Positions 6,543-6,582 of a stretch of 64,000 nt of DNA are shown in pieces; position 1 is the first letter of the stretch, and each line of letters opens with the position of its first letter. This DNA comes from Escherichia coli (GTDB lineage: Bacteria; Pseudomonadota; Gammaproteobacteria; Enterobacterales; Enterobacteriaceae): the NCBI RefSeq assembly GCF_003018115.1, contig NZ_CP027457.1. One strand, written 5' to 3'. The notes under the pieces were generated by a model. The model was not told the origin of the DNA, made no database searches, and worked only from the letters and a program-made list of their open reading frames with translations. The translations under genes and the position numbers were made by a program.

Positions 6543-6582
6543 GCGAATCAGCGAATCAGCGAATCAGCGAATCAGCGAATCA
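6543..6582. repeat. Octanucleotide tandem repeat (GCGAATCA)x5 plus one degenerate unit
   Basis: Direct reading: gcgaatca repeated 5 times perfectly, followed by gcgatcac. Confidence 0.95.

Follow-up and report, generated by a model that had tools for sequence, protein, structure and literature searches.

The question raised by this locus is whether a perfect octanucleotide repeat in an island of Escherichia coli works as a contingency locus, its changes in length switching or tuning a gene, or is a variable-number tandem repeat (VNTR) that varies with little consequence. The sequence-only reading proposed the former, on the grounds that 8 is not a multiple of 3 and that slipped-strand mispairing would shift a reading frame or alter promoter spacing. 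The comparison with related genomes set out here points with good confidence to a VNTR that is lineage-specific and probably neutral, and that would have arisen from a proto-repeat within an island module undergoing decay.

In the window, meaning the whole 64,000-nucleotide stretch analysed, positions 6543-6582 read exactly (GCGAATCA)x5, or (TGATTCGC)x5 on the minus strand. Five perfect 8-bp units had been described here, and both the exact sequence and Tandem Repeats Finder bear this out; the latter reports 6543-6586 with period 8, 5.5 copies, 100% matches and a score of 88, by far the strongest tandem repeat of the 64-kb window, all other rows having at most 3.2 copies. By simple arithmetic, about 64000 x 4^-32 (~3e-15) occurrences of five perfect tandem 8-mers are expected by chance in 64 kb, and therefore chance cannot produce the array. 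The array and the elements around it are as follows.

6479-6728, minus strand: conserved non-coding spacer that hosts the array (from genome search, synteny and alignment)
6519-6543, minus strand: near-invariant block CACTGTGGTGTCAATTAACCACACG with the dyad TGTGGT-N8-ACCACA, adjoining the array (from 11 aligned spacers)
6543-6582, no strand: the array (GCGAATCA)x5 (from sequence), with 3-16 units at the same site in 16 other samples
6583-6589, no strand: GCGATCA, ancestral flank containing a GATC site (from the alignment of relatives and the sequences of Nissle and L081/L087)
6589-6608, no strand: hairpin with an 8-bp stem, ACGGTGCG-cttt-CGCACCGT, on the other side of the array, reading GGTGCG-aaat-CGCACC in relatives

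The heptamer GCGATCA had been taken for a degenerate sixth unit. It is present as described, but it is not a decayed unit: as it is conserved in relatives that lack the array, it belongs to the ancestral flank and makes up one half of the proto-repeat from which the array would have arisen.

Copy number was determined by counting units between the unique flanks TTGACACCACAGT and GCGATCACGGTGCGC, the island having been retrieved from further draft assemblies via exact-protein look-ups with the neighbouring gene products. The 17 independent samples, window included, carry 3, 4, 4, 5, 5, 5, 6, 7, 7, 8, 8, 9, 9, 10, 10, 13 and 16 units; most of these alleles come from short-read draft assemblies, in which single long alleles could be mis-sized, and one closed long-read genome has 10 units. 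This gives 11 allele lengths, every array being an exact multiple of 8 made of whole units, and the lengths are evenly scattered over 3-16 units with no clustering on given lengths or on n mod 3. The cross-genome comparison, a check that the sequence-only reading had suggested, reveals fast copy-number change even between identical flanks; an identical copy number in all strains, which that reading had named as counting against it, was not found among the 17 samples.

The window and four further loci (L068, L069, L070 and L071) have 5, 5, 7, 16 and 8 units respectively and show 0 differences in 3.4 kb of flank, while three loci sharing a second flank haplotype have 9, 6 and 3 units. Different copy numbers between identical 3.4-kb flanks are the hallmark of slipped-strand mispairing. 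Among 5,426 complete E. coli genomes, the locus was found at ≥99% identity in strain 2014C-4135 alone, given as Shiga-toxin-producing E. coli (STEC) O113:H21 ST-223 in a published study (PMC9453080). This closed long-read genome has 10 units at the same site versus 5 in the window, and over 12.6 kb the two differ otherwise by one SNP (4631) and a 1-bp indel in a G-run (6295), the repeat difference being 40 bp. The G-run in question (window 6289-6295) lies in the N-terminal fragment of a broken Rpn gene, where the one-base difference alters the small ORF called; the run may be another site of slippage, or the difference may be a homopolymer error of the long-read sequence.

Two sub-lineages, with flanks up to ~1% divergent (L073 and L074), retain the array at no fewer than 3 units. 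The L073 allele consists of three copies of GCGAATCA followed by five of GCAAATCA, and the variant unit recurs in the independent sample L088. By its arrangement, GCAAATCA in L073 is a point-mutated unit that has itself been amplified to five copies. Taken by its allele lengths and flanks, the locus is a true hypermutable VNTR: a short unit of at least 6 bp is repeated head to tail (here period 8, 5.5 copies and 100% matches), the array is polymorphic among close strains (3-16 units, 11 lengths in 17 samples), and whole-unit change is much faster than substitution, as judged from the identical flanks.

Most O157 loci used in multilocus VNTR analysis (MLVA) have 6-bp units, and the present locus is unlike most of them in its 8-bp unit, its position between pseudogenes and its confinement to one rare island variant (1 of 5,426 complete genomes). 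It otherwise resembles the E. coli MLVA VNTRs (O157-3, -9, -10, -17 and -25) in being a short-unit tandem array that changes by whole units and exists in many copy numbers, with both single- and multi-unit differences between near-identical strains. In passage experiments, O157:H7 VNTR loci mutated by whole units at 4.4e-5 to 1.8e-3 mutations per generation (PMC3777172), and rates of this order would fit the identical flanks with differing arrays seen here. The locus thus has, at the level of sequence, every feature of an E. coli MLVA-type VNTR. The sequence-only reading had called such a mechanism unusual in E. coli, which is true of contingency loci but does not apply to VNTRs, as these are routine in E. 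coli MLVA typing (PMC3777172).

Whether such variation could matter depends on what lies beside it. All genes between 5750 and 8500 are on the minus strand, and those of the module are listed here from upstream to downstream.

7907-8500, minus strand: protein named 'inovirus-type Gp2' in RefSeq, 197 aa, with weak Pfam matches (REP_ORF2-G2P, E=0.002; YagK_YfjJ_C, E=0.04)
7153-7536, minus strand: intact zinc-ribbon protein 1, 127 aa (Pfam DUF7828 and Zn_ribbon_11)
6729-7156, minus strand: zinc-ribbon protein 2 pseudogene (ORFs 6983-7156 and 6729-7070), annotated as 'frameshifted' by RefSeq in 2014C-4135
6477-6494, minus strand: remnant of a YagK/YfjJ-type gene, GTG TCT CAG GAC GGT TAA (from sequence and alignment to relatives)
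5774-6306, minus strand: Rpn-family nuclease/transposase pseudogene, including ORF 6136-6333 (from tblastn against an intact 313-aa relative)

The array had been placed between small minus-strand ORFs, which is literally so, but those ORFs are pseudogene fragments. Upstream, the two ORFs of zinc-ribbon protein 2 correspond to residues 1-55 and 47-141 of the 141-aa protein that is intact in Nissle, and past codon ~50 the frame is broken by an insertion of 2 bp, TG (window ~7009-7012; tggtttgTGagcatg versus tggtttgagcatg in Nissle). This frameshift is shared by all array-bearing loci examined and by array-less L081/L087, where the genomic context is another one, beside a GntR-family gene. As L081 has the frameshift and no array, the frameshift is older than the array, and its presence in L081/L087 in a different context implies that the pseudogene allele has spread between island variants. 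Downstream, the GTG of the YagK/YfjJ remnant (6494) stands 48 nt from the array and aligns with the annotated YagK/YfjJ start (locus position 1516) in L057, L059 and L060; in every array-bearing locus the gene is severed after 5 codons, at the junction with Rpn-associated sequence, where homology to the relatives ends.

Some 145 bp of unrelated sequence separates this remnant from the Rpn start. In tblastn, 6306-6178 aligns with Rpn residues 7-49, and 6178-5774, in another frame, with residues 124-258; the 74 codons for residues 50-123 are deleted with a change of frame, and no match was obtained for the C-terminal ~55 residues. The ORF at 6136-6333 had been singled out as lying about 210 bp from the repeat, and the geometry is right (210 bp from the array start at 6543 to the GTG at 6333). 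By its alignment, however, this ORF is what is left of the N-terminal part of a dead Rpn nuclease gene, holding residues 7-49 with 50-123 deleted.

The C-terminal region of the same pseudogene (residues ~176-258 of the intact relative) is spanned by an intact 90-aa ORF with an ATG start at 5750-6022 on the minus strand, and a 10-of-12 sigma-70-like site is found just upstream of it at 6064-6036 (minus strand). Intact Rpn genes have their C-terminal domain translated separately, as a small antitoxin (PMC10327210), and by analogy the 90-aa ORF could be an orphan RpnS-like protein. Further along, 3700-5590 is a patchwork of an IS66 transposase fragment, the remnant of an autotransporter C-terminal beta-barrel (ORF 4249-4689) and an intact SdiA-regulated-domain gene (4760-5590), the last being called as 276 or 268 aa in other assemblies.

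In relatives, the spacer that hosts the array is ~245 bp long and runs from the stop of zinc-ribbon gene 2 to the start of the YagK/YfjJ-type gene. Of 5,426 complete E. coli genomes, 1,132 gave a homologous spacer in a sensitive search with 6470-6720, and 991 of these match at least 80% of the query at ~70-72% identity. Among the spacer-bearing complete genomes, 2014C-4135 is the only one with the array, and no length expansion appeared in the match lengths of 59 other homologous spacers sampled across the spread. Gene order was the same in all ten relatives retrieved, with the Gp2-type gene, the two zinc-ribbon genes (1, then 2), the spacer and usually a second YagK/YfjJ-type gene. In the ~990 genomes that have it, the spacer (as at L002 3001-3262 and in L057-L064) always follows the zinc-ribbon pair and usually lies directly before a YagK/YfjJ-type gene.

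The array site in these relatives is found between the hairpin GGTGCG-aaat-CGCACC and the near-invariant block CACTGTGGTGTCAAT.AACCACACG, and reads GATCGC[G/T]GATTCGCCGAATCCGC in the alignment. In Nissle, the site is a palindrome, GCGGATTCG-C-CGAATCCGC. In PSS-15, SD134209 and the close relative L081/L087, the site carries TCGCTGATTCG, which is 1.5 units of the repeat, and the array lineage is without the second palindrome arm CGAATCCGC and without a further ~36-nt spacer segment. On this alignment, the array is a recent local event in a spacer that is itself old and conserved. In the most economical history, the module would have decayed, the palindrome arm would have been lost, and slippage of the proto-repeat would then have run away: a 1.5-unit proto-repeat (TCGC-TGAT-TCG) in a non-coding island spacer would have seeded the array once the second arm of the palindrome was lost. 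The array would thereafter lengthen and shorten in whole 8-bp units through slipped-strand mispairing at replication, the variation itself being observed, and its length change would far outpace point substitution. As the flanking genes are all decayed, length changes most likely proceed without phenotypic effect; that the surroundings had already decayed is seen directly, and neutrality is what this anatomy suggests.

The alternative closest to the sequence-only reading is a contingency locus of the phase-variable or rheostat kind, in which array length would set the distance from upstream spacer elements to the conserved block or the start region and so tune minus-strand transcription into the Rpn remnant with its 90-aa ORF. 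The array does resemble the contingency loci of Haemophilus, Neisseria and Campylobacter in being a hypermutable simple-sequence tract whose unit is not a multiple of 3 and which changes by slipped-strand mispairing. Those loci have their tract in an ORF or promoter; here, as judged from sequence, no intact gene is coupled to it, and no surface or restriction-modification gene is at hand. Graded expression is known from 7-bp repeats upstream of Haemophilus influenzae hmw1A/hmw2A and from a TAAA tract upstream of Neisseria meningitidis nadA. The present array shares with them an intergenic position, tens of bp upstream of the gene start in relatives, and a wide range of copy numbers; unlike them, it is followed in all array-bearing loci by a gene of which 5 codons are left.

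For such a rheostat, it can be said that in relatives the site precedes the next gene's annotated start by ~50-70 bp, a typical regulatory position, that in the known analogues, too, the repeats stand upstream of a core promoter, that conserved elements flank the array, and that the Rpn remnant retains an ORF for the C-terminal domain, which in intact Rpn genes yields a separate small antitoxin (PMC10327210). Several observations count against this account. Consensus scans of the window found no promoter- or terminator-like sites within ~230 bp of the array on either strand, and found no such site in the spacer of two relatives that keep the downstream gene either. A conserved TTGACA on the plus strand (6531-6536) was considered as a -35 element and rejected, as it has no usable -10; the position 17 bp downstream reads GAATCA for n≥2 and always lies inside the array, and copy number could therefore not alter hexamer spacing. 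An array of 24-128 bp is in any case too long to fit between a -35 and a -10.

The tract is thus neither in nor next to the promoter of an intact gene as far as consensus scans detect, its neighbours being truncated, broken or frameshifted. By this geometry, only an effect of upstream distance is possible, and its target gene is missing. As for the Rpn remnant, its nuclease part is destroyed and the ~145 bp of unrelated sequence intervene before its start, and the alleles are spread evenly over 24-128 bp with no favoured ON or OFF lengths. A contingency locus is therefore unlikely, and the locus offers no evidence for repeat-mediated phase variation in E. coli; the minus-strand stops in the array, the dead neighbours and the lack of a promoter-like site near it all tell against the contingency reading first proposed.

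Returning to the neutral VNTR, two observations sit uneasily with it. The array lies between two conserved elements, the hairpin and the dyad block, of a spacer kept in ~990 genomes, and at least 3 units persist in two sub-lineages whose flanks are up to ~1% apart (L073 and L074). Given its position, the array could conceivably affect the conserved spacer element. In one version, rated decidedly unlikely, it would be a length-tunable spacer between the hairpin and dyad block of a widespread island element, reversibly altering the activity of that element. If true, array length would influence, for instance, transcription into the RpnS-like ORF or, in connection with the Gp2- and YagK-type genes, a function resembling that of an origin, and the locus would be a repeat-based switch in E. 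coli.

A related alternative, which is highly improbable, has the array tuning a DNA or RNA element of the island, origin-like or protein-binding, and thereby altering replication, excision or regulation. The conservation of the spacer in ~990 genomes, its position adjoining genes named after a rolling-circle initiator, and the block CACTGTGGTGTCAATTAACCACACG, which is invariant or nearly so in 11 of 11 aligned spacers and has one occurrence in the window where 0 are expected by chance, would be in keeping with such an element. RNAalifold on nine array-less spacers further predicted nine conserved helices with 58 pairs, 97% of cells being paired. Against such tuning, 0 of the 58 predicted pairs show compensatory changes and column-shuffle controls were not exceeded; G-U pairs number 81 on the minus strand versus 6 on the plus strand, a count that is biased as the structure had been predicted on the minus strand. 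Rfam gave no match in 6000-7200 even at E≤10, and no gathering-score match near the array. The Pfam support for Gp2 is weak, and the loss of ~36 nt of spacer together with the dead neighbours in the array lineage points to decay rather than tuning; no test made here lent support to an origin-like or regulatory role of the hairpin-rich region.

The array could also be imagined as a coding repeat in a small plus-strand gene (from GTG 6520 or TTG 6530; WP_260589401.1), with units shifting the frame of the C-terminus. On the minus strand, the unit TGATTCGC puts TGA in all three frames within 24 nt, and hence no minus-strand protein is translatable through the array. On its plus strand, the array has no stop codon in any frame, and ORFs of 20-84 aa, depending on n, cross it from GTG 6520 or TTG 6530 at every copy number. 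Gene callers do report some of these: RefSeq/PGAP annotates the 44-aa hypothetical protein WP_260589401.1 over the array in 2014C-4135 (L001 6270-6404, plus strand, corresponding to window 6520-6654, plus strand), and other assemblies have calls of 52 or 60 aa that vary with copy number, though only at some allele lengths. As a real gene the plus-strand ORF was rejected. Its openness is a mechanical property of the unit, it has no family match and is antisense to every gene of the neighbourhood, and in relatives the start reads ATG GTT GGT TGA, leaving no ORF there. The hypothetical proteins annotated over the array are most likely spurious calls, made because the unit is open in all plus-strand frames, and with no conserved or intact ORF around the tract on either strand, coding by the array is a very remote prospect.

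That the copy-number differences are assembly artefacts is scarcely credible, even though short-read drafts supply most alleles and two k-mer-based Logan contigs end inside the array, as there are eleven lengths, all exact multiples of 8 in perfect units with unique flanks assembled on both sides, and the closed long-read genome has 10 units against 5 in the window, arrays of ≤128 bp being within read length.

The array is a highly discriminating marker, with 11 alleles in 17 samples, some of which are otherwise inseparable by their flanks over several kilobases. As STEC O113:H21 ST-223 belongs to the lineage in which it occurs, the locus could sharpen outbreak typing. It also provides a real biological reason for differences between short-read assemblies of this region and, for annotation, a source of spurious 'hypothetical proteins' whose length varies with copy number. 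As an example of microsatellite birth, it would combine a hairpin-rich conserved spacer, partial loss of a palindrome, decay of the neighbours and a 1.5-unit proto-repeat that has grown to up to 16 units.

The locus appears to be undescribed so far: none of the 16 rotations and reverse complements of the unit occurred as a stand-alone word in the searched literature, which excludes most subscription journals, and the same literature held nothing useful on the YagK/YfjJ/zinc-ribbon module. A metagenome scan with the left flank plus two units gave 0 matches. The 16-mer TTGACACCACAGTGCG had 51 matches in genome contigs, all of which were rejected as chance occurrences in unrelated taxa, none of them enterobacterial; the species-representative E. 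coli in that scan is without this spacer variant. Among viral contigs, the related-locus search for zinc-ribbon 2 returned one locus, without the spacer anchor, and three units of the repeat gave one match (L055), which was set aside as an unrelated array in other sequence context. This viral array, at 4747-4770 of L055 (IMGVR_UViG_3300032053_001077), reads (GCGAGTCA)x2(GCGAATCA)x4 and looks like an independent octanucleotide array of nearly the same unit. Elsewhere in the window, Rfam gathering-score matches were obtained for Ysr251 (16465-16658, plus strand), ES036 (CssrF; 36168-36210, plus strand), naRNA4 (CssrE; 42090-42168, plus strand) and the cspA thermoregulator (52850-53272, minus strand).
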